DNA of 64,000 bases from Patescibacteria group bacterium (GCA_038065715.1 JBBTQL010000004.1:35693-99692); one strand, 5' to 3'. Positions 7,914 through 64,000 are shown, numbered from the stretch's first letter. The notes: generated by a model not told the origin, from the letters alone. Numbers and translations are program-made.

Positions 7914-8748
7914 TTTTATTAAAAATATTATTTTTTATTTCTTTTAAGTCGGCTCCCGTTTTCATTAAAAGCCCGGCAGTTTCAAAAATTTCCTGCGTTG
8001 TTTTTGAATTTCCAAAATTTTCTGTGTAAATTGCCAGTCCTGCCAAAAAGCAGTTGGCAGCCTGTTTTTTTACCCCGTTAGAAAGCCCATCTTTTGAGGG
8101 TTCCTTATTGGATGGGTCGTATGGCCCCGGTTGCTCAAGCTTTCTATCGGGGTTTACAAGATTTAACGCCATCTCTGACAAAGAATAATCTCTTATTATG
8201 TTTATTCTACCAAAGTTTTGGTTTTTTGTCCCGACTTCGTCGAGGATGCTCGATGGCGAAGCCATCGGCACACTTTCACTATCTATATTTAAAATAAGAG
8301 AATCCAGTAAAAACCCATAAGAGTTAAGCTTGCCAGCCAATTCAGTTTTAAAATCTTTTATTCCTAAAGTTATTGTAAGGTCTGGTTTTGTTTCTGAAAA
8401 ATAAAATAAGAGGTTTTCTTTTTTTATATTTCCCCTGTCAATCATTAAATGAATTTTTAATCCTTCTTCATTTTTTTCGTAGTAAACCTGCGAGATTTCA
8501 GCTGTTTTTTGAGGAATTGAAATCACAAAGTTTTTTGGATATGAAATATGGCCTAAGCTAGGCAATAAAAATCGAAATTTTTCTGGAAATTCTTCTATTA
8601 TTAAGTTTACATTTTTATTTAATTCTTTTAAAGTATAAAAAAGAGCCAAAGCAACTGGAATGCTTTCGCCATTTGGGTTATCATTTGGAATAATGCAGAT
8701 ATTTTTTGCTTCAGAAATTAATTGCTTTGCTTCTTGCGGTATTTCCAT
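7906..8748 (-). CDS. Hypothetical protein, possibly a degenerate DHH-family phosphoesterase, carrying a GC-palindrome insertion
   Basis: N-terminus ICIIPNDNPNGESIPVALALF resembles DHH motif I/II but lacks the catalytic His. Overlaps pilB by 8 nt. Palindromic element at 8228-8271 lies in-frame. Confidence 0.35.
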   Translation of the reverse strand: MEIPQEAKQLISEAKNICIIPNDNPNGESIPVALALFYTLKELNKNVNLIIEEFPEKFRFLLPSLGHISYPKNFVISIPQKTAEISQVYYEKNEEGLKIHLMIDRGNIKKENLLFYFSETKPDLTITLGIKDFKTELAGKLNSYGFLLDSLILNIDSESVPMASPSSILDEVGTKNQNFGRINIIRDYSLSEMALNLVNPDRKLEQPGPYDPSNKEPSKDGLSNGVKKQAANCFLAGLAIYTENFGNSKTTQEIFETAGLLMKTGADLKEIKNNIFNKNE

Positions 8749-13341: not shown

Positions 13342-14316
13342 ATGATTTATTTTATTTACGGGGAAGATTCTTACAGGTCAAAAAAGAAATTAGAAGAGAT
13401 AATTTTAGGTTACAAAAAAGTCCATAAATCAGGATTAAATTTGGTTTATGTTGATGCTGGTAAAACAGACTTTAATGATTTTTACAGCAATTTTAAAATT
13501 ACCTCAATGTTTGCTGAAAAAAAACTGATAGTTTTAAAAAATGTTTTTTCTCGCCCTGAACGCGCCGAAGGGCCAAGTCAAAAGTTTCAGGAGGAGTTTT
13601 TAGAAAATTTTAAAAATTTAGAAAAAATTGAAGATATAATTATTGTTTTTGAATATGATGCGGTTGATGAAAGAAAAAAGCTTTTTAAAATTTTAAAAAA
13701 AGAAACAAAATGCCAGGAGCTCTCTTTTCTTTTTGGGCTAAGCCTAAAAAAATGGGCAAAAGAGGAGTTCGAAAAAAACAAAACAAAAATTAATCCTGAC
13801 GCAGAAGACTTGCTTTTGGCTTTTACGGGAAACGATCTCTGGCAATTAGCAAATGAGATAAATAAATTATCAAATTATAAAAGAGAGGGGTACTCGCTGC
13901 CAGGTCTTATAAAAAAAGAAGATGTTGAGCTTTTAGTAAGGCCTAAGTTAGAAAATGATATTTTTAAAACAATTGAAGCCATGGCTCAAAAAAATAAAAA
14001 AGAAGCTTTTTCTTTATTGCATAAGCATATTGAAAATGGAGACAACGCCCTTTATCTGCTTTCAATGATTGCCTACCAGTTTAAAAATCTTTTAATAATA
14101 AAAGAACTTATTGAAAAACGCCTGCCCTATGCTGTTGTTTCAAAAAACAGCGGGCTTCACCCGTTTGTTGTTAAAAAAACATATTATTTGTGCGGCCAGT
14201 TTTCATTTAACGAACTAAAAAAAATCTACCAAAAAATTTTTCAGGCAGATTTAGATATTAAAACAGGTAAGATTGATCCAGAACTCACCTTAGATTTATT
14301 AGTTTCAGAAGTATAG
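13342..14316 (+). CDS. holA: DNA polymerase III delta subunit HolA
   Basis: MIYFIYGEDSYRSKKKLEEI... typical HolA N-terminus. The ORF track starts at an upstream TTG (13333); the ATG at 13342 is preferred. Confidence 0.7.
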   Translation: MIYFIYGEDSYRSKKKLEEIILGYKKVHKSGLNLVYVDAGKTDFNDFYSNFKITSMFAEKKLIVLKNVFSRPERAEGPSQKFQEEFLENFKNLEKIEDIIIVFEYDAVDERKKLFKILKKETKCQELSFLFGLSLKKWAKEEFEKNKTKINPDAEDLLLAFTGNDLWQLANEINKLSNYKREGYSLPGLIKKEDVELLVRPKLENDIFKTIEAMAQKNKKEAFSLLHKHIENGDNALYLLSMIAYQFKNLLIIKELIEKRLPYAVVSKNSGLHPFVVKKTYYLCGQFSFNELKKIYQKIFQADLDIKTGKIDPELTLDLLVSEV

Positions 14317-14322
14317 TTATTT

Positions 14323-14583
14323 TTATTTTTTTTCTATCAATCTTGTTAATCTGGATTTTTTTCTTGACGCGGCATTCTTTTTTATAACCCCCTTTTTTGC
14401 CGCTTTATCTAAAATAGAATAAACCTCTGATAATAGTTTTTTTACTTCAACAGATTTTTTTTCTAAAACCAAACTGCGGGCCTCTTTAATGAGGCTTTTC
14501 ATTTTGTTTTTATAAACAAGATTTTGCTCTTTTCGCCTTGCGTTTTGGCGAATAGCTTTTTTAGCTGATTTTGTTATAGCCAT
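14323..14583 (-). CDS. rpsT: 30S ribosomal protein S20
   Basis: MAITKSAKKAIRQNARRKEQN... bS20. Confidence 0.85.
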   Translation of the reverse strand: MAITKSAKKAIRQNARRKEQNLVYKNKMKSLIKEARSLVLEKKSVEVKKLLSEVYSILDKAAKKGVIKKNAASRKKSRLTRLIEKK

Positions 14584-14724
14584 AATTTTTTATTTTATAT
14601 AAAAAAAGCATATCACATAATTATTATTTTTGCAATAGTTGAAGCTTTGTGCTATATTGTAAAAACAGTTTTTTACTTGCCCGTGTGGGCAGGTTTCGCA
14701 CATTGACATTAAGGGAGCTCAGAA

Positions 14725-16302
14725 ATGATTAGCAAACAAAAAAACAACGATTGGCGGTTGATAAGGATTATTGTTCCTGCGTCTAAGAGAGAAACTATAT
14801 ATAGCAGACCATTAAAGATTACTACATCTTTGGCGGCTGTGATTTTAGCAACTATTATCAATAAGATTTGGGGATGGAGGGTTGAGATAATAGATGAAAA
14901 CAATTTTAGGAGCGGTCCTTTAGATAAAAACGGTTTGCCAGACCATGCAGTTTTGCAAAGAGAAAATCCAGCTGTATTGGTTGGATTTTACTGCGGTTTA
15001 AGCAGCCAGATTGACAGAGTTTGGGATTTGGCCAAACTTTATAAAGAACAAGGAGTGGCCACTGTAGCAGGCTCTTGGCATTCTCACTATTTGCCAGAAG
15101 AAACCTTACGCCACGATATTGATTTAGTTGTGCACGGCGATGGAGAACCTGTGATAAAAAGAATTATCTCTAACTTCAGCGACGGAAAGCCTTTGTGGCA
15201 ATCTGTTCCAGGAGTTTCTTTTTTGAGAGATGGTAAAGTTTATCACAACTCTTTAAGCTTGCAAGAAATTCAAGGTATTCCAGATGAAGATGAATTTTTG
15301 AATGGCTTAATGAATAAGGCTTTTGACTTAAGCGACCAGCCCTATCCAGACTTTGGTTTAGTAAAACTTGCAAAAATCAAAATATACCCGATAGGTCGCA
15401 TTAGGGGGTGCAGTTTTAGATGCGAGTTTTGCAGTGTTAGGGGTTCTGCTAGATGGGCAAGCCCAGAATATTTATTTGGAACAGTTAATTGGCTGGTTCA
15501 AACAAGAAAAGCAAAAGAGTTTTTTATTGTTGACGACAGGCTTGAAGAAGATATTGAAGGCACAATAAGGTTTTTTGAAATGATTGCTAAAAAGTACGGC
15601 AACAAACTCAGTTTTATTGTGCAAGTTCGTCTTGGAGCCGCAGAAAATACAAGGCTCTTAGAGGTAATGGAAAAAGCAGGAGTTAGAGTTGTTTGTATTG
15701 GGTATGAATCTCCGATTCAAGAAGAATTGAAGGCAATGCGCAAAGGAGTGGCGGCAGAGAAAATGCTTGAACTAACTAGAATCTGGCGGAAACATTTTAG
15801 GATTCACGGAATGTTTATAGTTGGTTTTCCTCTGCAAGACAACCAACCGTCTCCGCCAGCAAAGAAAATTTACAAAGTCTACAAGGATTTTGTAAGAAAA
15901 GCTGGCATAGACAGCGTTCAGTTTCTTGTGGCAGGGCCGGTGCCGGGGTCTGACCTTAAAAAAAGGTTGAAAAAAGATCAAAGACTGCCCTTTTCTGACC
16001 AAGAAATGTCGTTGGCTGGCGATGGAAATTTTGTTTTGTTCAAACCAATTGGCATAACTGCAACAGAGCTTCAAAATACTACCATGCGGCTAATGAGATG
16101 GTTTTACGGGCCTCTGAACATTCCCAGATTTGTTTTTAGGCTCTTGTCTTTTCCATTTGATTGGCTGATAAGAGGATGGCAAAATTGGTACAAAGACTGG
16201 TGTAGAGACAAAATAAAACTTGGAGGCCATTATTTGTTAAGAAAATGGCAAAGAAGAAAAGAAGTAGCAGAGCTTTTGGAAGAGATTAAAAAGCGATGCT
16301 AA
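14725..16302 (+). CDS. B12-binding-domain radical SAM protein
   Basis: N-terminal B12-binding-like region. CxxxCxxC cluster GCSFRCEFCS. 525 aa with a long C-terminal extension. SD aagggag. Confidence 0.7.
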   Translation: MISKQKNNDWRLIRIIVPASKRETIYSRPLKITTSLAAVILATIINKIWGWRVEIIDENNFRSGPLDKNGLPDHAVLQRENPAVLVGFYCGLSSQIDRVWDLAKLYKEQGVATVAGSWHSHYLPEETLRHDIDLVVHGDGEPVIKRIISNFSDGKPLWQSVPGVSFLRDGKVYHNSLSLQEIQGIPDEDEFLNGLMNKAFDLSDQPYPDFGLVKLAKIKIYPIGRIRGCSFRCEFCSVRGSARWASPEYLFGTVNWLVQTRKAKEFFIVDDRLEEDIEGTIRFFEMIAKKYGNKLSFIVQVRLGAAENTRLLEVMEKAGVRVVCIGYESPIQEELKAMRKGVAAEKMLELTRIWRKHFRIHGMFIVGFPLQDNQPSPPAKKIYKVYKDFVRKAGIDSVQFLVAGPVPGSDLKKRLKKDQRLPFSDQEMSLAGDGNFVLFKPIGITATELQNTTMRLMRWFYGPLNIPRFVFRLLSFPFDWLIRGWQNWYKDWCRDKIKLGGHYLLRKWQRRKEVAELLEEIKKRC

Positions 16303-21181: not shown

Positions 21182-21787
21182 ATGATAGCATTTTTATCGG
21201 GTAAAATTTTATTAAAAAAGGACAAGTTTATCATTCTTGAAGCAGCTGGCGTTGGCTACAAAGTTTTTTTAAATCAGCAAACCCTATCCCGACTCGATCG
21301 AGGATCCTCGACGACTTCGTCGTCGGGATTAAAATTATCAGAAATAGGGCAGGATGTAAAGCTATTTTGCTTCCAAAATATAAAAGAAGATGCTTCGGAT
21401 TTATATGGGTTTTTAAGTTATGACGAGCTTGATTTTTTTGAGGTGCTAAACGATATTCATGGCGTAGGGCCAAAAGCTGCTTTGGAAATTTCTGTGTTAG
21501 GCCCCTTAGAAAAAATTAAGGACAGAATTTTAGCGCAGGACGAAAAAATATTTGAAGGAATTCCCGGAATTGGTTCAAAAAGGGCGTCGTCAATTATTTT
21601 AGAATTGACCGGAAAAATAATGGCGAAGTCCGCCTTTGCTAAAGCTTCGCCAGACGAAGCAGAAACCGCTTTAACCCAGCTTGGTTTTTCAAAACAGCAA
21701 GCAAAGGATGCCCTGGCTCGCGTGCCTGTTGCTGTTAAAAATTCTGAAGACAGAATAAAATTAGCGCTTAAAAATTTAGGAAAATAA
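21182..21787 (+). CDS. ruvA: Holliday junction DNA helicase RuvA
   Basis: MIAFLSGKILLK...GVGYKVF domain I. HhH motifs DIHGVGPKAALEI / GIPGIGSKRASSIIL. 40-nt GC palindrome at 21288-21327 is in-frame. The ORF track's upstream start (21098) is probably spurious. Confidence 0.8.
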   Translation: MIAFLSGKILLKKDKFIILEAAGVGYKVFLNQQTLSRLDRGSSTTSSSGLKLSEIGQDVKLFCFQNIKEDASDLYGFLSYDELDFFEVLNDIHGVGPKAALEISVLGPLEKIKDRILAQDEKIFEGIPGIGSKRASSIILELTGKIMAKSAFAKASPDEAETALTQLGFSKQQAKDALARVPVAVKNSEDRIKLALKNLGK

Positions 21788-22770: not shown

Positions 22771-24039
22771 GTGTTAGATTGGGTAAATATGAGGATAAAA
22801 GAAGCAGTTAAAAAAATATTAGGCAGAAATTTGTTGGGTTTTTATCATTATGGCATGGCTTTTTTGGGAGCTGTGATTTTTGGTTTTCCATCTAAAAATT
22901 TAACTGTTATAGGGGTTACAGGCACCAGCGGTAAATCAACTACTTCTGATTTTATCACAAGAATTTTAGAAGAACCCTTCGACGGGGCCCAGGGCAGGTC
23001 TGGCAATAAGGTGGCTTCAATTTCAACAATAAGATTTAAAATTGCAGAAAAAGAATGGGAAAATAAATATAAAATGACAATGCCCGGCCGTTTTGTTATT
23101 CAAAAGTTTTTAAGGCAGGCAAAAAAAGCAGGATGCAAATTTGTGGTTTTAGAAGTTACTTCGCAAGGCATTGAACAATATCGCCATAAATTTATAAATT
23201 TTGATACAGCTGTTTTTACTAATTTGTCGCCAGAGCATATTGAAAGCCATGGCAGTTTTGAAAATTACAGAAACGCAAAACTAAAACTATTTCGAGCAAC
23301 AAAAAACATCCATATTATAAATACTGATGACGCAAATTCAAAATATTTTTGGAATATTCCGGCAAAACAAAAAATTGGATTTTCAGCCAAAGATGCGCAA
23401 AACGCTAATTTAAAATTAAATTTAATTGGAGACTTTAATATTTTAAACGCCTTAGCGGCAATTTCTGCGGCAAAGGCATATGGCATTGATTTTAGCATTT
23501 GTAAAAGGGCGCTGGAAAAGGCCAAAGGAATTTCTGGCAGAATGGAAGTGATTCAAAAAGAGCCATTCAAAGTTATTGTTGACTATGCTCATACTCCAGA
23601 ACAACTCGAAAGTGTCTATAAGGCACTTTCTCAAAACCCAAAACCTCAAACTCCAAACCCCAAACTTATTTGTGTGCTTGGAAGTTGCGGCGGGGGAAGG
23701 GATAAATGGAAAAGGACTGTTTTAGGAGAAATTGCAAATAAATATTGCGACAAAATATTTATAACCAATGAAGATCCATATGATGAAAACCCCAACCAGA
23801 TTTTATCTGAAATAAAATCTGGAATTATCAATTCTCAATTTCCAATTTCCAATTTATATGAAATTTTAGACCGTAAAGAGGCAATTAAAACTGCAATAAA
23901 ATTAGCAAAATCAGATGATATTGTTATAATCACTGGCAAGGGTTCAGAATCCTGGATGTGCATAGCAAACGGTAAAAAAATCCCCTGGGACGACAGGCAA
24001 ATCGCTAAAGATGCGTTGGGGCTCCAAACCTTGACATAG
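22771..24039 (+). CDS. Mur ligase family protein (MurE/MurF-like central and C-terminal domains)
   Basis: P-loop VIGVTGTSGKSTT. DYAHTPEQLESVY. N-terminal TM helix. Three in-frame repeat inserts (22975-23005; 23634-23665; 23829-23856). Confidence 0.7.
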   Translation: MLDWVNMRIKEAVKKILGRNLLGFYHYGMAFLGAVIFGFPSKNLTVIGVTGTSGKSTTSDFITRILEEPFDGAQGRSGNKVASISTIRFKIAEKEWENKYKMTMPGRFVIQKFLRQAKKAGCKFVVLEVTSQGIEQYRHKFINFDTAVFTNLSPEHIESHGSFENYRNAKLKLFRATKNIHIINTDDANSKYFWNIPAKQKIGFSAKDAQNANLKLNLIGDFNILNALAAISAAKAYGIDFSICKRALEKAKGISGRMEVIQKEPFKVIVDYAHTPEQLESVYKALSQNPKPQTPNPKLICVLGSCGGGRDKWKRTVLGEIANKYCDKIFITNEDPYDENPNQILSEIKSGIINSQFPISNLYEILDRKEAIKTAIKLAKSDDIVIITGKGSESWMCIANGKKIPWDDRQIAKDALGLQTLT

Positions 24040-24059
24040 ATGCTTTAATATGATATGAT
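24031..24059 (+). promoter_or_regulatory. Promoter TTGACA-N17-TATGAT of the DGR-A target gene, conserved with DGR-B
   Basis: ttgaca 24031-24036, 17-nt spacer, tatgat 24054-24059. The same hexamers and spacing occur at 61998-62025. Confidence 0.45.
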
Positions 24060-24218
24060 TAATAATATAGCTCTTTTTTATTGTTACTTGCGAAATTGGC
24101 AGTTATAGCCAAAAGCTACTGAATTATATCGGTATCTTCTGGCTATGACTGCTATGTCGGTACGTCAAGCAGAAACCAGCCTGTCATAATTGGCGGGCAA
24201 AACAGAAAGGAGATTGTC

Positions 24219-24878
24219 ATGGCTGTGCAAGTCATTGGCGATCTATATGTGGAGTTGGATGGGAAGTTGGCGGAGATTAAGCGGCAAATGAGGCAGCAGG
24301 GAGGCTATCCGTTTGACCCGGAGAAATTAAACAAGTTTCTCCAACTAGCTGTCGAGGGCAGGTTCAACGACAACCGGTGCTGGTGCGAGAAGGAAGGAGT
24401 GATCTACTTTGAGGTCACCTCTGACGGCACGACTGGACCCCAATGGATTGAGCGTCTGGAGAAGAAGGGTATCCAGCTCTCCAAGTGGGCCAAGGACGTC
24501 CTGCTGTCTCCGGACTTCAAGCCGACCAACGGCGTGACCACCGAGATCGCTGTCCTCAAGGGCGCGCTTTTTATGGACAATGATCGCATCACGTCTAAGA
24601 TCCGCGCTGAGGCCGACAAGCGCAAGCTCGTCAAGCCCGAAGCCGAACTCGGTTGCCTTATCCGCGACACGTTCACGGACGAGGAAATCGAAGCCATGGG
24701 TCTTGTGTGGATCGTGGCGTTCCACGAGCCCATCAAGGACTCTGACGGCGATCCGACGTTGCTCGGTGCGCGTCGCCTTGGCGATGGCCGTTGGCTGCGC
24801 GCGTGCTGCGGCCTGCCCGACCGCAGGTGGCTTCGCGACCGTGGCTTTGCCTTCGCCGTCTCGCAAGTATCTTCGTAA
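24219..24878 (+). CDS. DGR variable (target) protein A, with the variable region at its C-terminus
   Basis: SD aaaggagattgtc then ATG. 219 aa, ~57% GC. The C-terminal 42 codons are the VR matched by TR-A. Confidence 0.75.
   Translation: MAVQVIGDLYVELDGKLAEIKRQMRQQGGYPFDPEKLNKFLQLAVEGRFNDNRCWCEKEGVIYFEVTSDGTTGPQWIERLEKKGIQLSKWAKDVLLSPDFKPTNGVTTEIAVLKGALFMDNDRITSKIRAEADKRKLVKPEAELGCLIRDTFTDEEIEAMGLVWIVAFHEPIKDSDGDPTLLGARRLGDGRWLRACCGLPDRRWLRDRGFAFAVSQVSS
24741..24866 (+). repeat. DGR-A variable repeat (VR)
   Basis: 126 nt aligned to TR-A (25208-25333). Mismatches fall essentially only where the TR has A (e.g. TR aatcgcaatgac vs VR cgtcgccttggc). The 3' end ggctttgccttcgccgtctcgcaa is identical (IMH-like). 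Confidence 0.8.
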
Positions 24879-25207
24879 GTCCTTTGGGCTTGAGCCTTTG
24901 CTCTAGCCCTTGGATCCTCTGCCCTTTGCATTTCCTCACGGACTTGCACTGGGCAGATTTTTTTTGCTAAAATATAAATGGTAATAGGTGAATCTTGCGG
25001 GAGATCAAGGTTTCCCGCGGCCGAATCCAGTATTCGTATGCTGAGAGCGTTTGCGATTAAGGTTGCAAACGGAGGGCATACGAATTACTTTCAAAAAAGA
25101 AGATACTTGGCGTGGGAAACTAGGGCATTACGATGCCGAATTCGATACAGCCCTGTGATCGTAAAACTACTTCAAGGGGCAGTGGCATAGATGGTTTCTT
25201 GCGTATT

Positions 25208-25333
25208 TCTGACGGCGATCCGAACTTGCTCAGTGCGAATCGCAATGACGATGGCCATTGGCTGAACGCGTACTACGACAAGCCCGACAACAGGTGGAAT
25301 CGCGACAATGGCTTTGCCTTCGCCGTCTCGCAA
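25208..25333 (+). repeat. DGR-A template repeat (TR)
   Basis: Non-coding copy of the VR, rich in AAC/AAT codons (…AACGCGTACTACGACAAGCCCGACAACAGGTGGAATCGCGACAAT…). Confidence 0.8.
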
Positions 25334-25705: not shown

Positions 25706-25715
25706 GGGGGGGGGG
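25706..25715. repeat. Homopolymeric G10 (C10 on the avd strand) in the avd/RT divergent intergenic region
   Basis: agtctGGGGGGGGGGattaaaag. The equivalent position in DGR-B has G7. Confidence 0.9.
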
Positions 25716-34538: not shown

Positions 34539-34567
34539 TTGACACAGAGTTGAGGGGGGGGTATTAT
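34539..34567 (+). promoter_or_regulatory. Promoter TTGACA-N17-TATTAT whose spacer holds a G8 homopolymer (candidate phase-variable promoter)
   Basis: ttgaca 34539-34544. Spacer cagagttgaGGGGGGGG (17 nt, G run 34554-34561). tattat 34562-34567. Directly upstream of the secreted protein gene at 34665. Confidence 0.5.
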
Positions 34568-38037: not shown

Positions 38038-38054
38038 TTGTATTTATTATTTTA

Positions 38055-38403
38055 GTGGAAGCGCCGGGGTCGAACCCGGGTCCAGAAATTTTTTAAAAAT
38101 AAATCTACAAATTTATCTTGCTTTGTTGTTTGGATATTAAATAAGAAGCAAGAAAAATGTTTAATATCCTAATTCTCGTAAATCTCGACAGTTCCCCGAG
38201 AAATAAAACTGCCTATCCTGAAAATATAACACCCTCGGTCCATTTATCAGGAGTCAATGGCGAGGATGCAGCATTAAGCTAAAGCTAGTGCTGGTTGCCT
38301 ATTAAATAAATTAGCAATTATGTTTTTTCTATAAGTTTAACCAGGTTATAGAAAACTGGATTTGCATATTTTTAATGAAACATCTGTCAAAACTTACGCT
38401 CCC
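38055..38403 (-). ncRNA. ssrA: tmRNA (SsrA)
   Basis: 3' end GGACCCGGGTTCGACCCCGGCGCTTCCA (T-arm + acceptor) at 38056-38083 on the minus strand. 5' GGGAGCG at 38397-38403 pairs with the 3' CGCUUCC to form a 7-bp acceptor stem. Candidate tag reading frame gct aat tta ttt aat agg caa cca gca cta gct tta gct taa gives (A)NLFNRQPALALA* (plus 38274-38315). Lies immediately downstream of smpB. Confidence 0.65.
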
Positions 38404-39830: not shown

Positions 39831-41482
39831 TAAAAGAAGAAATAAAAAAAATAGTGGAAAACTCAATTAAAAACCTGCAAAAACAGGGCGCATTTTTAAA
39901 ATTAAAAATGCCAGAAATTTTAATTGAGCGGCCTAAAGAAAAAATACGCGGTGACTATTCAACCAACATTGCCTTTGTAATTGGAAAAGATGTTTTGAAA
40001 AATCCATTTGAAACGGCATTGCTTTTGAAAACAGAAATTGTCTCGCTTTGCGAGATCTCGCGCAGCGAGAAAAAACAAAAATCTGTAATAGAAAAAGTTG
40101 AGGTAGTGGGAGGGTTTATTAATTTTTTTGTTGCTGACGATTATTTTAAAAATCAGCTGCAAATTATTTTAAAACAAAAAAACAAATTTGGAGATTTAAA
40201 ACTTGGTAAAAGTCAAAAAGTAAACATAGAATTTATTTCTGCAAATCCAACAGGGCCGTTAACTTTAGGAAACGGCAGAGGAGGATTTTGTGGCGATGTT
40301 TTGGCTAATGTTTTAGAAAAAGCAGGATATAAAGTTGAAAGAGAATATTATATTAACAATACCGGAGCTCAAATTAAAAAACTTGGGCATTCTGTAATTG
40401 GAGATGCAGAAGCTGTTTACAAAGGAAAATATATTATTGATTTAAGAAACAAAGTTAAGGGAGATGACCCCGAGAAAGTTGGAGAAAAATCGGCAAAAAT
40501 TATTTTAGAAAAAATGATAAAGCCGTCTGTAAAAAAAATGGGAATTAAATTTGACACATGGTTTTCAGAAAAAACTCTCTATAAAAATAAAGAAGTAGAT
40601 AAAACAATACAAGAATTGGCTAAAAAAGGGTTCACCTATGAAAGCGAAGACGCTGTGTGGTTTAAATCTAAAGAATTGGGCGATGACAAAGACAGGGTTT
40701 TGGTGAGAGCCGACGGAATTAAAACATATTTTGCTTCAGATATTGCTTATTTTAAAAATAAATTTAAAAGAGGGTTTGGTAAACTTATTATGTTTTTGGG
40801 AGCCGACCACTATGGATATGTTCCGAGGCTAAAAGCTGCCTCGCTTGCTTTTGGTTTTAAAAAAGACAGTATTGATGCTATTGTTATGCAGTTGGTGCGG
40901 CTTTATGAAAAAGGCAAAGAAGTAAGAATGGCAAAAAGGACTGGTATTTATGTAACAATAGATGAGTTAATTGGCGAGGTTAGTTTGGATGTTGCCAGAT
41001 TTTTCTTTTTAATGATAAGCCCTAATACCCACATGAATTTTAATTTGGATTTAGCAAAAGAAAAATCAGAGAAAAATCCGGTTTTTAAAGTGCAATATGC
41101 GCATGCCCGAATTTGCTCAATTTTCCGAAAATTTGGAAATTTCAAATTTTCCCGATTTCATCGAGGATCCTCAATGGCAAAGCCATCGGGACAAATTTCA
41201 AATTTAAAATTATTAAATGAGCCGAGCGAGTTAGGGTTAATTAGAGAATTAATTAAACTTCCAGAAATTATTGAAGAGATAGCTAAAGATTATCAAGTTC
41301 AAAGACTACCGCAATACGCAATGGATTTAACTGATGCATTCCATAGATTTTATGAAAACTGTAAAGTCCTGAGCGAAGTCGAAGGATTGCGTGATGCCCG
41401 CTTGTCTCTTGTTATGGCAACAAAAATTGTTTTAAAAAATACATTAGACTTAATGGGAATATCTGCTCCTGAAAAAATGTGA
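39827..41482 (+). CDS. argS: Arginyl-tRNA synthetase
   Basis: ISANPTGPLTLGNGRGGFCGDVLANVLEKAGYKV class I signature. C-terminal anticodon-binding DALR domain. Composite heptamer + palindrome insertion at 41129-41210 is in-frame. Confidence 0.9.
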   Translation: MIKEEIKKIVENSIKNLQKQGAFLKLKMPEILIERPKEKIRGDYSTNIAFVIGKDVLKNPFETALLLKTEIVSLCEISRSEKKQKSVIEKVEVVGGFINFFVADDYFKNQLQIILKQKNKFGDLKLGKSQKVNIEFISANPTGPLTLGNGRGGFCGDVLANVLEKAGYKVEREYYINNTGAQIKKLGHSVIGDAEAVYKGKYIIDLRNKVKGDDPEKVGEKSAKIILEKMIKPSVKKMGIKFDTWFSEKTLYKNKEVDKTIQELAKKGFTYESEDAVWFKSKELGDDKDRVLVRADGIKTYFASDIAYFKNKFKRGFGKLIMFLGADHYGYVPRLKAASLAFGFKKDSIDAIVMQLVRLYEKGKEVRMAKRTGIYVTIDELIGEVSLDVARFFFLMISPNTHMNFNLDLAKEKSEKNPVFKVQYAHARICSIFRKFGNFKFSRFHRGSSMAKPSGQISNLKLLNEPSELGLIRELIKLPEIIEEIAKDYQVQRLPQYAMDLTDAFHRFYENCKVLSEVEGLRDARLSLVMATKIVLKNTLDLMGISAPEKM

Positions 41483-59467: not shown

Positions 59468-62014
59468 ATGAATATGGCAAAATATAATCCTCAAAAAATT
59501 GAGAAGAAATGGCAAGAGGCTTGGTATAAATCAAGCATTTTTAAAGCTAAAAACGGGTCTAAAAATAAGAAATTTTACCTTTTAGTGGAGTTTCCTTATC
59601 CTTCGGGAGACGGGCTTCATGTCGGCCATTGCCGAAGCTATACTGCCTTAGATATTATTGCCAGAAAAAAAAGAATGCAGGGATTTAATGTTTTATTCCC
59701 AATGGGCTGGGACGCTTTTGGATTGCCAACTGAAAATTATGCCATAAAAAAGGGAGTACACCCGTCTGTTGTGACAAAAAAGAATACAGATAACTTTAGG
59801 CGGCAGATGAAAAGTTTGGGGCTTTCTTTTGACTGGAGCCGAGAAATAAATACCACAGACCCAAAATATTATAAATGGACGCAGTGGATTTTTTTGCAGT
59901 TATTTAAAAATAACTTGGCTTATAAAGATAAAATTGCAATCAACTGGTGCCCTAAAGATAAAATTGGATTGGCAAATGAAGAAGTGATAAATGGCAAATG
60001 CGAAAGATGCGGCGCAAAAGTTGAAAAAAGAGATAAAGAGCAATGGATGATAAAAATTACAAAATATGCCGACAGATTAATTGAAGATTTAAATTTAGTT
60101 GATTATTTAGAAAAAATAAAAATACAGCAGAAAGATTGGATAGGCGAGTCACATGGAGCGTTGATAAAATTTTCGTTAGAAGGAAGCGAAGAATTCATAG
60201 AAGTTTTTACAACCAGAATAGACACAATATTTTCTGGCACGTTTTTAATTTTATCTCCAGGACACAATTTTATAGATAAATATAAAAATAAAATTGAAAA
60301 CATTGATGAAGTTTTAAAATATAGAGAAACCGCAAAAAATACTTCTGATATAGATAGAACTAATCAAGATAAAGATATTACAGGAGTGGAATTAAAAGGA
60401 ATTACAGTAAAAAATCCTGCCACAAATGAAGAAATGCCAGTTTGGACAGCTGATTTTGTTTTAGAGCAATACGGAACAGGAGTCGTTTTTGCTGATGCCC
60501 ATGATAAAAGAGATTTTAAAATGGCAAAAAAATATGGGATACCTTTGCGAACTTCAATAAAACCAGAAAATGAACTATCGGCGCAAAAAGCAAAAAATTT
60601 GGAAGAATGTTTTGAGGGCGAAGGCGCTCTTTATAATTCTATGCATTTTGACGGCTTAACTTCTTCTGAAGCCCGACCTAAAATAATTTCTTGGTTAAGG
60701 GAAAAAGGATATGCGGAAAACAAAATAAGCTATAAGCTTCGAGATTGGGTTTTTTCGCGCCAGCATTATTGGGGCGAGCCAATACCAATGATTTTTTGCG
60801 TAAAATGCGGTTGGCAGGCTGTTTTAGAAAAAAATCTGCCCGTTGAATTGCCTAAGGTAAAAAAATATCAGCCAACAGATACAGGCGAATCTCCTCTTTC
60901 TGCTATTGAAAAATGGGTAAATGTAAAATGTCCAAAATGCAAAGGACCGGCAAAAAGAGAAACAGACACAATGCCTAATTGGGCAGGTTCAAACTGGTAT
61001 TACTTGGCATATACTATGCCAAAAATTTCAAATTTCAAATTTCAAATTTCAAATTCTGCGAAAGAATTTTCGCAGTGGATGCCAGTTGACTGGTATAATG
61101 GCGGAATGGAGCACACAACTTTGCATTTATTGTATTCAAGATTTATTTTTAAATTTTTATGGGATATTGGAGCTGTTCCAAAAATAATTGGGGCAGAACC
61201 ATATAAAAAAAGAACTTCGCATGGAATGATTTTAGGCGAAGGGGGAATTAAAATGTCAAAGTCAAAGGGAAATGTAATAAATCCAGATTCAGTTGTGAAA
61301 CAATATGGAGCCGACACCTTAAGAGTTTACGAAATGTTTATCGGGCCTTTTGAGCAAATGATTCCTTGGGATATAAAGGGGGTTGTTGGTTCGCGCAGGT
61401 TTTTAGAAAAAATTTACAACTTAGTTTTGAAGAAGGCAATTCCGGCAAAAATCCCGACGGTCTCGCCGTCGAGGACCCGCGACGAAGTCGGGGCAGAAGA
61501 AAATTTTAAAAAACTTTTGCATAAAACAATAAAAAAGGTTGGTGACGATATTGAGGCAATGAAATTTAACACAGCAGTGAGCTCTTTAATGGAATTTGTA
61601 AATGCATGGAGCATTGCTGAAAATAGTTTAGATAAACCAGCCTCCGATAAAGGCTACGGCTTGGCGAAGAAAGATTTGCAAGAATTTTTAAAGATTTTGT
61701 CGCCTTTTGCCCCGCATTTGTCAGAAGAGCTTTGGCAAAGAGCTGGATTTAAAGGTTTGTGCTGCGCTCAAAAATGGCCTAAGTATGACGAAAAATTAAT
61801 TGAAGAAAAAAACATATTGCTTATTGTGCAAATTAACGGTAAAGTTAGAGATAAAATAGAAGTTAACGCAGGCATTACTCAAAAACAAGCTGAAGAAATA
61901 GTTTTAAAATTAGAAAAAATTAAAAACCGTATAACTAATATTAAAGAAGTGGAAAAAGTTGTTTTTGTGCCAGGTAAGTTAATAAATTTTGTGACTATTG
62001 ACAAGGATAAGTAA
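59468..62014 (+). CDS. leuS: Leucyl-tRNA synthetase
   Basis: HVGHCRSYTALDIIARKKRMQGFNVLFPMGWDAFGLP (HIGH region). KMSKSKGN. 848 aa. Heptamer array + hairpin at 61023-61077 and palindrome at 61453-61494 are in-frame. Confidence 0.9.
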   Translation: MNMAKYNPQKIEKKWQEAWYKSSIFKAKNGSKNKKFYLLVEFPYPSGDGLHVGHCRSYTALDIIARKKRMQGFNVLFPMGWDAFGLPTENYAIKKGVHPSVVTKKNTDNFRRQMKSLGLSFDWSREINTTDPKYYKWTQWIFLQLFKNNLAYKDKIAINWCPKDKIGLANEEVINGKCERCGAKVEKRDKEQWMIKITKYADRLIEDLNLVDYLEKIKIQQKDWIGESHGALIKFSLEGSEEFIEVFTTRIDTIFSGTFLILSPGHNFIDKYKNKIENIDEVLKYRETAKNTSDIDRTNQDKDITGVELKGITVKNPATNEEMPVWTADFVLEQYGTGVVFADAHDKRDFKMAKKYGIPLRTSIKPENELSAQKAKNLEECFEGEGALYNSMHFDGLTSSEARPKIISWLREKGYAENKISYKLRDWVFSRQHYWGEPIPMIFCVKCGWQAVLEKNLPVELPKVKKYQPTDTGESPLSAIEKWVNVKCPKCKGPAKRETDTMPNWAGSNWYYLAYTMPKISNFKFQISNSAKEFSQWMPVDWYNGGMEHTTLHLLYSRFIFKFLWDIGAVPKIIGAEPYKKRTSHGMILGEGGIKMSKSKGNVINPDSVVKQYGADTLRVYEMFIGPFEQMIPWDIKGVVGSRRFLEKIYNLVLKKAIPAKIPTVSPSRTRDEVGAEENFKKLLHKTIKKVGDDIEAMKFNTAVSSLMEFVNAWSIAENSLDKPASDKGYGLAKKDLQEFLKILSPFAPHLSEELWQRAGFKGLCCAQKWPKYDEKLIEEKNILLIVQINGKVRDKIEVNAGITQKQAEEIVLKLEKIKNRITNIKEVEKVVFVPGKLINFVTIDKDK

Positions 62015-62025
62015 ATATGCTATGA
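61998..62025 (+). promoter_or_regulatory. Promoter TTGACA-N16-TATGAT of the DGR-B target gene
   Basis: ttgaca 61998-62003 (inside the leuS 3' end) and tatgat 62020-62025. Matches the DGR-A promoter. Confidence 0.45.
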
Positions 62026-62201
62026 TTAATAATACAGCTCTTTTTAAGTGAAAATACTTGCAAAAACAGCGGTTATAGCCAAAAGCGACCGAAGGTCGTC
62101 CTGAGCAGAGCCGAAGGACAACAAATCGGTATTTTCTGGCTATGACTGCTATGGTAGTAGTCAAGCGAAATGGTGAAACCCTAAAGAAAGGAAAAAGCAC
62201 C

Positions 62202-62822
62202 ATGTCGTACGACAAGCAGACAGCCGAGTTCATCGCCACTGTGGTGCAGAACATCCCCAAAATGTCAGGCGATGTTATGCAGGGTTGGATTGGGAATCCA
62301 AAAGCGCTACAGAAGCTCCTCTTGGGTCTATGCCCTTCTGTCAATGAGCCCAAGGAAGTCTCGTTGCTCCGCAAGCTCGCCAGCGTTCAGGTGGAGGGCG
62401 TTGCAAGATTCGTCGTTGACGACGATACCCTGCAGGCGGCCAACATCGGCTGGACTGGCGACAACTTCAAAAAGTTTTTCGCCAAGAAGGTTGAGGAGGA
62501 TGTTCCCGCCTGCGCTATCGCTGTTCACCGGCTGGAACGCGCGTCTTCGGATGCGCCCATTCTCACCGAACTCGGTGACCGCGCCGAAATCAGCCTCGCG
62601 CACCTGTTCGAGCTGATCAAAAAGCAGTCCAAGGGCGAAACTGGCCAGTTGTTGGTTAATGGTTATGCGAATGTCGCATATGTCCGTGGAACCGATGGCA
62701 ACCTCTGGGCTGTGCTTGCGGCCTGGCGCTCTTACTGCGGTTGCTGGGGTGTCGAGGCTGACTCGGTTGAGGATCCGGACGGGTGGCGCGGTAGCCGCCG
62801 GATTCTCTCCCGCGATTCTTGA
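62202..62822 (+). CDS. DGR variable (target) protein B, with the variable region at the extreme C-terminus
   Basis: SD aaaggaaaaagcacc then ATG at 62202. ~57% GC. Last 36 codons = VR-B. The ORF track's upstream ATG (62142) lies in the conserved leader. Confidence 0.7.
   Translation: MSYDKQTAEFIATVVQNIPKMSGDVMQGWIGNPKALQKLLLGLCPSVNEPKEVSLLRKLASVQVEGVARFVVDDDTLQAANIGWTGDNFKKFFAKKVEEDVPACAIAVHRLERASSDAPILTELGDRAEISLAHLFELIKKQSKGETGQLLVNGYANVAYVRGTDGNLWAVLAAWRSYCGCWGVEADSVEDPDGWRGSRRILSRDS
62704..62813 (+). repeat. DGR-B variable repeat (VR)
   Basis: 110 nt aligned to TR-B (63165-63274). Substitutions essentially only at TR adenines (TR tac ggt tac tgg aat ... aac vs VR tgc ggt tgc tgg ggt ... 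gac). Shared 3' attctctcccgc. Confidence 0.8.
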
Positions 62823-62867
62823 AACTTAATCCTTTTGGGATTTTGGATCTTGAATCCTTTGAATCTA

Positions 62868-62916
62868 TGGCTCTCTGAAACTTTGAAAAAAGTAGTAAGA
62901 GAGCCTTTTTGTTTTG
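62868..62916 (+). terminator. Intrinsic terminator after target B (ggctctct/agagagcc + T-run)
   Basis: 8-bp stem, 22-nt loop, ttttt gtttt. Confidence 0.5.
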
Positions 62917-63164
62917 TGAAAAAGTAATGTAGAATAAATCTAAGGAATGCTAAGTATGAAGGCTACGGCTTTCATAAAGCGCTCCGAAAATGTATATTGC
63001 AGAATTATTGCGGATACGTCTTCAATAAGAGTTGATATACATATTTCAAAAAAAGAAAAGAATCGGTGTGGCGTGCTGGCGGACTTTGAGGTCCCAAATA
63101 AGATACAGCCCCTAGAGTATTCAAAGGGCAGTGGCATTGATGGCGCGTTGCATATTAATTAGGG

Positions 63165-63274
63165 TCTGGGCTGTGAATGCGAACTGGAACTCTAACTACG
63201 GTTACTGGAATGTCGAGGCTAACTCGGTTGAGAATCCGAACAGGTGGAACGATAGCAACCAGATTCTCTCCCGC
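63165..63274 (+). repeat. DGR-B template repeat (TR)
   Basis: AAC/AAT-rich (…AACTGGAACTCTAACTACGGTTACTGGAATGTCGAGGCTAACTCG…). Encodes LWAVNANWNSNYGYWNVEANSVENPNRWNDSNQ in the VR frame. Confidence 0.8.
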
Positions 63275-63642
63275 TACTGTTTTCTTTCTTCCGCTTTTAT
63301 CGCGGAAGTTTTGCTTATTATTCCTTTTTTCCAGCCACCGATTATCTTACCAATGCCTTCTATCTCAGCGCCAAGCGAGATATATTGTTTATTAGAAACG
63401 AGTTTTGTTTCCCATAAAAGCTGAAAGAAAAAACGCAACGAATCAATTTTGTCCGATGTCGCTTCAAGCAAAACAAGTTTTTTATTTATTGGCGTATACG
63501 TAGCTTTTCTTAATAACTCAAGAAGATCTAAAAATAAAATATCTACTTTAGTCCCGATTCCGAACCGCGCGATTCGTTCAATATTGCGATGCACTTCCAT
63601 CCACTGTTTATATATCAATTTGGATTTTTGCAAAACTGGCAA
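63274..63642 (-). CDS. avd: DGR accessory variability determinant Avd-B (TTG start)
   Basis: 122 aa. ...LGAEIEGIGKIIGGWKKGIISK C-terminus. Co-linear with Avd-A. Stop codon overlaps the last 2 nt of TR-B. TTG start 6 nt from the C7 tract. Confidence 0.7.
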   Translation of the reverse strand: MPVLQKSKLIYKQWMEVHRNIERIARFGIGTKVDILFLDLLELLRKATYTPINKKLVLLEATSDKIDSLRFFFQLLWETKLVSNKQYISLGAEIEGIGKIIGGWKKGIISKTSAIKAEERKQ

Positions 63643-63648
63643 CAGTCT

Positions 63649-63655
63649 GGGGGGG
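63649..63655. repeat. Homopolymeric G7 in the avd-B/RT-B divergent intergenic region
   Basis: agtctGGGGGGGattagaag. Homologous position to the G10 tract in DGR-A. Confidence 0.9.
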
Positions 63656-63685
63656 ATTAGAAGAATAACTATTTATATTTTGATT

Positions 63686-64000
63686 ATGAAAATTGTTTTG
63701 AAACATAAATATGAATATTTAATTAGCGTTAATAATTTATTGGAAGCGTGGACAGAATTTATCAAGGGGAAGCGCAACAAAAGCGATGTTCAGATTTTTT
63801 CATTTCATTTAATGGATAATATTTTACAACTTCATTGTGATTTAAAAAATGGCACATATAAGCATGGAGGCTATCAACAATTTAAAATCAACGACCCAAA
63901 ACCAAGGATAATTCACAAAGCCAGCGTAAAAGACAGATTATTGCACCACGCAGTATATCGTATATTATACCCGTTTTTTGATAAAAAGTTCATTGCAGAC
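63686..64000 (+). CDS. DGR reverse transcriptase B (5' part; continues beyond the window)
   Basis: MKIVLKHKYEYLISVNNLLEAWTEFIKGKRNK...GGYQQFKINDPKPRIIHKASVKDRLLHHAVYRILYPFFDKKFIAD. The last ~130 nt are ~95% identical at the DNA level to RT-A 25920-26050. Confidence 0.85.
   Translation, partial: MKIVLKHKYEYLISVNNLLEAWTEFIKGKRNKSDVQIFSFHLMDNILQLHCDLKNGTYKHGGYQQFKINDPKPRIIHKASVKDRLLHHAVYRILYPFFDKKFIAD

Follow-up and report, generated by a model that had tools for sequence, protein, structure and literature searches.

The right end of the window, the 64,000-nucleotide stretch of Patescibacteria group DNA analysed here, very probably carries a complete diversity-generating retroelement (DGR) of the Patescibacteria/CPR type, spanning positions 61998–64666 and consisting of a target gene with its variable repeat (VR), a template repeat (TR), avd, and a reverse transcriptase (RT) gene. 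This element, DGR-B, is the second such cassette in the window and, as the first-pass annotation had proposed, it has a target, VR, TR, avd and RT of its own, arranged in the order target(+), VR, TR(+), avd(−), RT(+). The left edge was also correctly placed at 61998, where a promoter-like site shared with the other cassette (DGR-A) begins. At the right, the element extends past the end of the window (64000) to window-equivalent position 64666. The host is an ultra-small groundwater bacterium, and the window matches part of a 139.5-kb Hainich groundwater contig with full identity.

DGR-B is a member of the CPR/Patescibacteria DGRs that is ordinary for its lineage, with no essential differences, and no feature of its sequence appears to exclude that it functions. 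The layout and spacing are found in every related locus with enough flank, a TR/VR pair is present in 58 of 82 sources (80 GTDB loci and both window cassettes), and avd lies on the minus strand wherever it is found among these loci. Most of the relatives carry the label of a Patescibacteria/CPR taxon or just 'bacterium', and three carry the label Gammaproteobacteria. The contig is not a chimera, because independent assemblies join LeuRS with target B, and join avd-B with RT-B and RT-B with the gene downstream, and a single NCBI MAG holds both targets (AAB352_00715 and AAB352_00930), 43 genes apart by locus tag and with the same longest contig, 271,864 nt, reported for each.

Genes and repeats of DGR-B

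The target B gene (62202–62822, + strand; 206 aa, MEK7658413.1) encodes a protein predicted to have three N-terminal helices and a C-type-lectin/FGE-like domain; the VR is at the C-terminal end. It had been described as unrelated to target A, which holds for the sequence (BLASTP E=5.2, hhalign probability 3%) but not for the fold, as in the predicted structures of both targets a helical N-terminal segment leads into a C-type-lectin/FGE-like domain containing the VR. Structural matches of the targets include TvpA and, for target A, also Mtd, and the variable region of target B is predicted from the model to sit on a C-type-lectin-type fold. We note that GC-rich target genes recur across the related loci, of which about 50–80 were compared.

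VR-B, the recipient (62704–62813, +), and TR-B, the donor (63165–63274, +), align without gaps and differ at 21 positions, all 21 of them TR adenines, with the 81 non-A positions of TR-B all the same in VR-B; the coordinates and the pattern of about 20 adenine-only differences given previously are thus confirmed. With an A content of 26%, the chance that all 21 mismatches would fall on A is about 7e-13. There is one VR per TR in 72 kb, and the distance from the end of VR-B to the target B stop codon is 9 nt. The 29 adenines of TR-B, of which 21 are changed in VR-B, occupy first (13) and second (16) but no third codon positions in 19 codons (AAC seven times, AAT three times, TAC twice, and others), none of which can mutate to a stop, and about 10^17 different forms of the ligand-binding face could therefore be generated from TR-B. 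The two repeats end in an identical 13-nt segment (GATTCTCTCCCGC, 62801–62813, +), a putative IMH by analogy with the Bordetella phage DGR. The last A-mismatch is at 62800, the first base of the segment is A in TR-B and the same in VR-B (there is no A-to-N change), and the repeats part directly after 62813 and 63274.

The avd-B gene (63274–63642, − strand) encodes 122 aa if started at the TTG at 63642, compared to 108 aa from the ATG at 63600 in the public call; its stop codon adjoins the 3′ end of TR-B, and it is transcribed divergently from RT-B. Its assignment is by homology and by a match to Pfam bAvd (E=2.9e-9, 102 of 107 profile positions), with a score of 37.8 bits that is just below the curated cut-off of 40, Avd-A being over it with 45.2 bits. 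Avd-B shares 36% identity with Avd-A (BLASTP E=1e-27) rather than the ∼50% estimated initially, and 66–70% with the Avds of loci L003, L009, L013 and L023.

The 5′ part of the RT-B gene (63686–64000, +) lies within the window and the gene runs to window-equivalent 64666 (14219–15199 of locus L001). Truncation or frameshifting beyond the window had been raised as a sign of decay, but the parent contig has neither; RT-B is an intact 326-aa ORF with catalytic and DGR-specific motifs, LGNLTSQ (in LPLGNLTSQ) and YADD, and matches Pfam RVT_1 with E=2e-24 (2.1e-24). It is 58–79% identical to hundreds of CPR RTs.

Between avd-B and RT-B is a G7 homopolymer (63649–63655, +), whose DGR-A counterpart is a G10 tract (25706–25715). 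This site carries a simple-sequence repeat in 71 of 77 related loci: G7–G14 in 67 of them, and (GT)n, (GA)n, (AG)n or (CT)n in L020, L027, L041 and L042. Among the 72 G/C runs of at least 7 nt in 501 kb of these loci, 67 are the avd-RT tract. The G7 of DGR-B is the shortest seen (2 of 77 loci), the modal length being G10 as in DGR-A.

RNA structure and other cis elements

The TR sits in a conserved structured RNA with a 110-nt three-helix domain on its 5′ side, a long-range clamp helix, and a stem-loop followed by a U-run. The 5′ domain (63049–63158, +), recognized from covariation and by covariance model R1, is directly 5′ of TR-B and contains helices P1 (63066–63077 with 63142–63153), P2 (63081–63084 with 63091–63094) and P3 (63108–63112 with 63125–63129), with compensatory changes in 21 of 23 pairs according to RNAalifold. 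The clamp helix, P0, brackets the 5′ domain and the TR, since its 5′ strand (63052–63063, +) pairs with 63276–63287 (+) directly 3′ of TR-B; 8 of its 10 pairs are changed on both sides, 89.6% of cells are paired, and the best register is 70.6% paired, no other register exceeding 49%. With P0 included, the complete structure of 33 pairs is 94.2% paired, against 74.8% when shuffled and 34–55% when slid. In the window R1 matches only the TR-B 5′ domain and 25093–25209, and it gives one match in each of about 16 held-out loci. The scores of 106.7 bits for DGR-B and 90.4 bits for DGR-A indicate that the element is intact but are not independent support, because both cassettes are in the training alignment. 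A search of Rfam with the 5′ domain gave no match.

Thirteen nucleotides past the TR, a terminator scan identifies stem-loop P4 (CTTCCGC-TTTTATC-GCGGAAG, then TTTT; 63288–63312, +), which overlaps the C-terminal codons of avd-B on the opposite strand. An automated scan finds a post-TR stem-loop in 54 of 54 loci (median stem 8 bp, median start 12 nt past the TR), with a T-run after 48 of them and weak or misplaced calls in L064, L068, L072 and L082; the stem sequences vary between loci. P4 is either terminator-like or the counterpart of an Avd-binding stem-loop, and together with its U-run it could end the RNA before any primer-supplying spacer such as that of the Bordetella phage.

Several other elements flank the target gene. 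Upstream is the promoter-like TTGACA-17-TATGAT (with TG; 61998–62026, +), which matches 11 of 12 consensus positions and is shared with DGR-A at 24031–24059; the DGR-B promoter region is 81% identical to 24031–24083 (direct repeat D9). The target-B leader contains a long hairpin (62068–62150, +; RNA fold z = −4.85) with a conserved base stem (GCGGTTATAGCCA / TGGCTATGACTGC) and a variable apical part. This element is also found ahead of target A (about 24097–24153; z = −5.58), and nhmmer locates it upstream of both A-type and B-type targets in L003, L047, L053 and L058. VR-B is followed by an array of CT(1-3)RR motifs (62814–62866, +; CTTGA, CTTAA, CCTTTTGG, TTTGG, CTTGA, CCTTTGA). Such arrays occur after VRs and are absent after TRs, with a modal spacing of 7–8 nt and, in 54 loci, a mean of 4.0 motifs per 70 nt after VRs, 0.57 after TRs, and 1.39 ± 0.15 in shuffled sequence. 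To the right of target B a terminator-like hairpin (GGCTCTCT...AGAGAGCC) and T-run (62869–62916, +) can be read from the sequence, and GC-rich hairpins with T-runs are in the same place in several relatives (e.g. L012, L016, L017). The DGR literature examined, which leaves out the principal CPR study (Paul et al. 2017), gives no description of the 5′ RNA domain, the clamp helix, the poly-G/simple-sequence tract, the post-VR array or the GC-rich targets.

Relationship between the two cassettes

DGR-B did not arise recently as a copy of DGR-A, because the Avds are only 36% identical and neither TR-B nor target B has detectable sequence similarity to its DGR-A counterpart. The RT genes had been reported as near-identical, with ∼95% identity at the 5′ end of RT-B, but this applies only to a patch of about 165 nt. 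The whole genes are 78% identical in amino acid and 76.5% in nucleotide sequence, and the 5′ ends within the window share ∼78% identity over 300 nt, with 57–78% in the first 170 nt and 92–100% only at RT nucleotides ∼180–330, approximately the last 150 nt of the window. The patch (63857–64000 and on to ∼64021, +) includes 77 nt of perfect identity (63914–63990) and is depleted in synonymous differences, which are seen at 11 of 54 codons compared to 84 of 194 conserved codons outside (Fisher p=0.002). The segment is 93% identical between RT-A and RT-B, and 67–81% identical between other close RT pairs. The patch is best read as a short gene-conversion tract; local constraint, if strong, could contribute, as the segment is also the best conserved in the other RT pairs.

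The phylogenies of the RT and Avd proteins differ. RT-A and RT-B are each other's closest relatives, grouping as sisters with 85% neighbor-joining bootstrap support (73.5% without the converted patch), and the clades that contain Avd-A and Avd-B are deeply separated, with 0% support for the two as sisters. The nearest Avd-B-like sequences are in loci that mostly have B-type targets, and loci with A-type targets have Avd-A-like proteins, although many targets are untypable and the loci are few. The RT sisterhood together with the deeply separate Avds supports modular evolution, as suggested previously, in this refined form. We infer from the single 165-nt patch and the sister RTs either concerted evolution, presumably by gene conversion, or exchange of an RT module between two old types of cassette.

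Two other histories can be considered. First, one DGR could have undergone a recent tandem-like duplication, with the target, TR and avd module replaced afterwards; this would account for the sister RTs, for the 93% identity in one RT segment, and for the promoter and leader, which are 78–87% identical between the cassettes. However, this is very unlikely, because over their whole length the two RTs are no closer than RTs from other organisms (RT-B shares 75–79% amino acid identity with those of other Patescibacteria, about as close as RT-A), and synonymous divergence beyond the patch is heavy. Moreover, other genera also conserve the leader, the TR 5′ domain and the avd-RT intergenic motifs, whose similarity therefore reflects function and not recency. 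Secondly, two ancient cassettes could have been inherited vertically together with a slowly evolving, host-tracking RT and no exchange, the patch reflecting purifying selection on RNA or codon usage. The compression of RTs in this clade to 58–79% identity, a correlation between RT and Avd identities of just r=0.28, and the conservation of the patch region in other RT pairs are consistent with this. We regard it as rather unlikely, since RT-A would be expected to group with RTs of A-type cassettes, and its nearest relatives are RT-B and the RT of L003, a B-type cassette; a 77-nt run with no synonymous change, compared to ∼43% synonymous difference elsewhere, is also unlikely without conversion. 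Conversion or module exchange between old cassettes is thus our preferred reading.

Possible activity of DGR-B and comparison with known systems

By analogy with the Bordetella phage system, RT-B with Avd-B would copy the TR RNA into cDNA, misincorporating opposite adenines, and the cDNA would replace VR-B at the 3′ end of target B, guided by the shared IMH-like end and by downstream signals present only at the VR, which in DGR-B would be the CTTGG-type motif array and the terminator hairpin. The outcome would be a varied ligand-binding face on a small C-type-lectin-fold protein. The ongoing diversification proposed earlier is not demonstrated, as all four independent assemblies and all database copies have an identical VR-B consensus, and diversification may therefore occur only rarely, be turned off, or go unseen in consensus sequences. 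This invariance, and the possession of the shortest G tract compared to the modal G10 of DGR-A, would also be expected if DGR-B were silent or decaying, its TR/VR pair a fossil of past activity that is serviced, if at all, by RT-A and Avd-A in trans. We consider this improbable: RT-B and avd-B are intact ORFs, every conserved cis element is present (the R1 scores attesting to intactness only), and the TR-B/VR-B pair has no non-adenine difference over 81 positions where the DGR-A pair has one. Service in trans is the less likely because Avd-B and TR-B are of a different lineage from Avd-A.

CPR-type DGRs are the most abundant cellular DGR clade, and we tentatively suggest that they might be a distinct mechanistic variant, in which the TR is carried on a discrete structured RNA of about 270 nt and Avd and RT are phase-varied. 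The RNA would comprise the 5′ three-helix domain, the clamp helix bracketing the TR, and the terminator-like stem-loop, with the 5′ domain assuming the RT-binding and stop functions that the Bordetella phage places downstream of its TR. A hypermutable simple-sequence repeat between the divergent avd and RT genes would give stochastic on/off control of the mutator proteins. If so, the cell would phase-vary its own hypermutation system, and the G10 and G7 cassettes of this genome could differ in expression state. As at simple-sequence contingency loci (Neisseria, Haemophilus and Campylobacter phase variation), a long homopolymer or dinucleotide repeat lies in the promoter/5′ region of a gene pair and its length varies between lineages (G7–G14); unlike at these loci, no length polymorphism was seen in the host population, where the tract is G7 in four assemblies. 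No DGR linked to a phase-variation-type repeat was found in the literature searched.

Compared to Treponema denticola TvpA and other FGE-type C-lectin targets, target B has no sequence similarity and no Pfam FGE-sulfatase match, its VR is much shorter (about 36 aa), and an N-terminal helical module stands where those proteins have a lipoprotein signal. With the Bordetella phage BPP-1 DGR (mtd-VR, avd, TR, brt), DGR-B shares adenine-specific TR-to-VR differences, a VR at the C-terminus of a (predicted) C-type-lectin-fold protein, an Avd accessory protein, an RT with an I/LGxxxSQ motif, and a common TR/VR 3′ end followed by divergence (IMH/IMH*-like in DGR-B). A stem-loop closely following the TR, and a duplex between the sequences on either side of the TR, are described for the phage DGR RNA (10.1101/2023.10.23.563531), and DGR-B likewise has a stem-loop 3′ of the TR and a TR-bracketing duplex. 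However, there are several differences from BPP-1. At the position of the phage's 140-nt spacer, between the TR and RT, DGR-B has an inverted avd; its bracketing helix has the 3′ strand between the TR and the stem-loop rather than after the priming site; ahead of the TR is a structured domain of 110 nt, where the phage needs only 20 nt; and a CTTGG-type array takes the place of the GC-rich cruciform right after the IMH. DGR-B is also cellular and not phage-borne, and its target has no evident surface-display domain.

The closest correspondence is with the CPR DGRs (B3, PMC5758913; clade 2, Roux et al. 2021, PMC8144416), whose gene order and strands DGR-B matches, the placement of RT-B in clade 2 being suggested by the taxonomy of its nearest relatives. 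TR-(avd)-RT, or B3, is the typical architecture of DGRs from the Candidate Phyla Radiation (Wu et al. 2018, PMC5758913), which like DGR-B are chromosomal, occur in groundwater Patescibacteria, and have small targets lacking recognisable transmembrane or Pfam domains.

A second, complete DGR cassette

The first-pass annotation recognized, in addition to the diversity-generating retroelement at about 24–26 kb (DGR-A), a second cassette starting at 61998 (DGR-B), and this core observation is right: DGR-B is a genuine, complete and canonical DGR of the Candidate Phyla Radiation (CPR) type. Its target gene (62202–62822, rightwards) carries the variable repeat VR-B (62704–62813) at its C-terminus, and the template repeat TR-B lies at 63165–63274. 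The two repeats (family D3) align without gaps, and base-by-base comparison bears out the claim that their roughly 20 differences all fall at TR adenines; there are 21 mismatches and 21/21 are at A, for which the probability is about 7e-13 given 26% adenine. Changes affect 21 of the 29 TR-B adenines, and all 81 non-adenine positions are the same in VR-B. In the frame of the target the adenines occupy the first (13) and second (16) codon positions and never the third, and the 19 adenine-containing codons (AAC seven times, AAT three times, TAC twice, and others) cannot mutate to stop codons; the protein variants that they permit number about 10^17.

The DGR-A repeats differ at 21 adenines and by one C>G change (24758/25225; C in the TR, G in the VR) located beside an adenine mismatch. 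Because there are 0 non-adenine differences between TR-B and VR-B, comparison of the repeats argues that the last homing into VR-B was recent relative to the point-mutation rate. TR-A and TR-B have one VR each, with no further matching VRs on either strand of 72 kb. No VR variants of target B are present among the protein collection copies (NCBI, MGnify, Logan and ENA), the cluster members, or four assemblies from well H43, an invariance that neither shows nor excludes activity, as all of them are consensus sequences and come from a single site.

RT-B runs past the end of the window, and its remainder, whose recovery the first-pass annotation had proposed, was obtained by looking up the LeuRS protein of the window by identity. 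This led to a contig of 139.5 kb in the Hainich groundwater metagenome Hain_H43_01um_R2_27, and the window is a part of that contig, with 0 mismatches over 4.5 kb. On this contig RT-B (window-equivalent 63686–64666, rightwards) is an unbroken 326-aa ORF that has the motifs LPLGNLTSQ and YADD and a complete RVT_1 domain, and the genes after it are ordinary housekeeping genes; the truncation of RT-B that would have marked DGR-B as a decaying copy is therefore absent. The leftwards-transcribed avd-B (63274–63642) is a 122-aa ORF between the TR and the RT gene that matches the Pfam bAvd family (E=2.9e-9) with 37.8 bits, just below the cut-off of 40; Avd-A scores 45.2. A chimeric assembly is excluded on two grounds. 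First, target A (MEK7658371.1, AAB352_00715) and target B (MEK7658413.1, AAB352_00930) are both in one NCBI MAG copy, and the longest contig reported is the same size for both (271,864 nt). Secondly, the link from LeuRS to target B, or that from avd-B through RT-B to the following gene, is present in three more independent assemblies.

A public gene call between target B and avd-B (62956–63162, 68 aa; ORF 62947–63162, 68–71 aa) probably encodes no protein; the equivalent region has stops in all three frames in 31 of 54 related loci, overlaps the RNA domain 5′ of the TR, and has RNA covariation. We also note that a short contig from another sample (L084) is the same as the sequence here through DGR-B, and that its downstream POR gene (contig positions 1–230, window-equivalent about 64871–65100) is about 25% diverged, which marks either a recombination breakpoint at the strain level or a chimeric assembly.

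Histories of the RT, Avd and target modules

Comparisons were made with 80 loci from GTDB species representatives, fetched with RT-B as query (relatives and other assemblies have handles L001–L085). The two RT genes are less alike than the ~95% nucleotide identity first reported for the 5′ end of RT-B, with 78% over 300 nt within the window and 76.5% (78% at the amino acid level) over their full length; identity is 57–78% in the first 170 nt, and reaches 92–100% only in RT nt ~180–330. The Avd proteins are likewise 36% identical when aligned, not ~50%. Across 73 loci RT and Avd identities correlate weakly (r=0.28). The nearest relatives of Avd-B (66–70% identity) are L023, L013, L003 and L009, followed by L053, L060, L059 and L008, and these loci have B-type targets with the exception of L013 and L023, which are untypable; those nearest to Avd-A (67–80%) include L016 and L017, with A-type targets, and the untypable L005, L014, L039, L043, L035 and L057. 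The RTs closest to RT-A are RT-B (78.5%) and then that of L003 (75%), a B-type cassette. In neighbour-joining bootstraps RT-A and RT-B are sisters in 85% of replicates (73.5% without residues 58–112), and Avd-A and Avd-B are sisters in none, their clades being deeply separate. Avd types are also mixed in the RT sister pairs L009/L016 and L014/L023. The loci L058 and L063, considered as a natural replicate, are uninformative, being 100% identical over 2940 nt.

The similarity of RT-A and RT-B is concentrated in one segment, and they share 77 consecutive identical nucleotides. Codons 58–112 are poor in synonymous differences (11/54, versus 84/194 elsewhere; p=0.002), and this segment is 93% identical between A and B compared with 67–81% in other close RT pairs. 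The simplest reading of these alignments is that there are two old cassette types, the RT genes of which would have been homogenised or exchanged within a lineage. The modular duplication or recombination originally proposed is supported in modified form, by discordance between the RT and Avd trees with a conversion-like patch in the RT; in these loci the RT and the Avd/TR/target module lack a single common history, and RT copies appear to exchange sequence.

The targets had been described as unrelated, which holds for their sequences (BLASTP E=5.2, not significant; profile–profile probability between the families 3%) but not for their folds. AlphaFold models from the family alignments have high confidence (pLDDT 88 for target B, 83 for target A). 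In both proteins they thus predict ~45 residues of helical segment at the N-terminus and then a C-type-lectin-fold domain, at the end of which is the VR. The 84 homologues of target B lack Pfam domains, and the few that are source-named are Patescibacteria or bacterium MAG proteins; the target A family is much larger (>1600). Neither target, nor any of the small ORFs between VR and TR, has a Pfam match. The first ~45 residues of target B (MSYDKQTAEFIATV..NPKALQKLL) recur at 67–83% identity on other proteins (P0079–P0084), and in the two inspected (P0079 and P0082) the C-terminal parts differ and look like variable regions; such a recurring module suggests domain shuffling among DGR targets.

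The target genes are also compositionally distinct, with GC3 values of 0.68 (B) and 0.75 (A) versus 0.25–0.35 for RT, avd and housekeeping genes including LeuRS, and a mean GC content of 54% in targets versus 37% across 52 related loci. The GC-rich stretches (62202–62702 in B, 24219–24740 in A) do not simply reflect adenine avoidance, because A and T are both depleted. Upstream of each target is a strong promoter-like site with a long leader hairpin (61998–62150 for B, 24031–24153 for A), whose base stem is conserved and whose tip is variable; the arrangement is common to these two sequence-unrelated targets and to some relatives (L003, at 1776–1947, L047, L053 and L058). The hairpin is a possible site of regulation, processing or recombination.

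RNA structure and repeats within the cassettes

An alignment of 54 loci that reaches from 140 nt upstream of the TR to 75 nt downstream of it (alignment A2) places the TR within a conserved structured RNA that is absent from Rfam. In the 110 nt 5′ of the TR, RNAalifold predicts three helices, with compensatory changes in 21 of 23 pairs, and a register scan identifies a long-range helix, P0, between the A-rich 5′ edge of the domain and the 12 nt directly 3′ of the TR (pairing 70.6%, versus ≤49% in other registers). In the complete structure the paired cells amount to 94.2%, compared with 74.8 ± 0.6% when shuffled and 34–55% with slid partners; double-change cells number 387 versus 119, and each helix has pairs changed on both sides. 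A covariance model of the 5′ domain (R1) has two matches in the 64-kb window, at 63049–63158 and 25093–25209, which match by construction as both sequences are in the training alignment; the informative outcome is that there is no other match in the window, and one each in about 16 loci outside the training set, upstream of the RT at the expected place of the TR. Two linked SNPs that mark assemblies from other H43 samples (63113 T>G and 63125 A>G, in L084 and L085) are both in helix P3 of this domain, and A63125G restores a C-G pair. An automated scan finds a stem-loop soon after the TR in 54/54 loci, typically 7–11 bp and GC-rich (median stem 8 bp, median start 12 nt past the TR) and with a U-run next in 48/54, although a few of these calls are weak or misplaced; that of DGR-B is at 63288–63312.

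Rfam searches of the whole window (gathering threshold) and of 61900–63750 (E≤5) returned only a tmRNA and chance-level matches. The tmRNA is at 38053–38403 (leftwards; 112 bits), with the tag peptide ANLFNRQPALALA predicted by ARAGORN, and there are no tRNA genes in the 64 kb. Three copies of a GC-rich 42–75-nt element, TCCCGA...TCGAGGAT.CTCGA...TCGGGA (8226–8300, 21287–21328 and 41147–41221), form a small branched hairpin of REP-like appearance in the otherwise AT-rich genome.

On the VR side, the 13-nt 3′ end shared by VR and TR is followed by tandem CT(1-3)RR motifs (62814–62866 after VR-B, 24867–24935 after VR-A) and then by a terminator-like hairpin, which together tell recipient from donor. 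Among 54 loci there are on average 4.0 motifs per 70 nt after VRs (range 0–9), 1.39 ± 0.15 in shuffled sequence, and 0.57 after TRs; they are thus about 3x the shuffled frequency, have a modal spacing of 7–8 nt, and take the forms CTTGG, CTTTG, CTTAG and CTTGA. We infer by analogy that the array and hairpin are candidates for the part that a GC-rich hairpin plays in the phage system.

The divergent avd and RT genes are separated in 67 of 77 related loci by a G tract of 7–14 nt (mode 10), at 63649–63655 in DGR-B (G7) and 25706–25715 in DGR-A (G10), and at most ~120 nt upstream of the RT start (loci L003–L082). Four loci have a dinucleotide repeat in its place, (GT)n, (GA)n, (AG)n or (CT)n, and 67 of the 72 G/C runs of at least 7 nt in 501 kb of related loci are the avd–RT tract; the only others in the window are at 34554 (G8) and 57675 (C7). 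The recurrence of a repeat at this position suggests a slipped-strand switch acting on avd/RT expression; its length does not vary in this population, being G7 in four assemblies. Alternatively the tract could be Shine-Dalgarno-like for the RT, or part of the avd 5′ UTR. The avd frame is open through the poly-C tract in 36/36 loci, with a canonical start upstream in 7, and in L009 direct reading of the sequence places a stop adjoining the tract; on balance we lean towards the poly-C tract being 5′ UTR rather than Avd-coding. Of 1,426 literature matches for homopolymers or phase variation, none of the 15 listed mentions DGRs.

Relationships to known DGRs

RT-B has thousands of homologues at 70–79% identity, and the named ones among those listed are from Patescibacteria metagenome bins. 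A repeat search tolerant of adenine changes recovered a TR/VR pair from 58 of 82 sources, and most of the others have under ~1.1 kb of contig upstream of the RT. In related loci the VR and TR are ~1 kb and ~0.5 kb upstream of the RT start, respectively. Wherever avd was found, it immediately precedes the RT and is encoded on the minus strand. This is architecture B3, 'TR-(avd)-RT', to which 90% of the CPR collection of Wu et al. belongs and which occurs almost nowhere else (PMC5758913), and the traits fit DGR clade 2 of Roux et al., which is cellular, aquatic and Patescibacteria-restricted, with targets lacking recognisable domains (PMC8144416). DGR-B is accordingly an ordinary example of a type already described. 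Enrichment of DGRs in Patescibacteria is known, and roughly 10% of genomes with a DGR have more than one. The cassette in itself thus adds little, and its worth is in the comparison of two types in one genome and with 80 related loci.

To our knowledge, work on the templating and regulation of DGRs has so far been confined almost entirely to one phage system, and the module histories, the TR RNA and the avd–RT repeat are testable handles on these processes in the commonest cellular DGRs. In the Bordetella phage DGR an Avd-binding stem-loop is located directly 3′ of the TR (10.1101/2023.10.23.563531). By analogy, the post-TR stem-loop described here may bind Avd or act as a terminator, and the 5′ domain may either bind the RT or act as a stop. 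The CPR and Bordetella phage RNA elements look analogous, although their arrangement differs and the CPR cassettes add a large domain 5′ of the TR.
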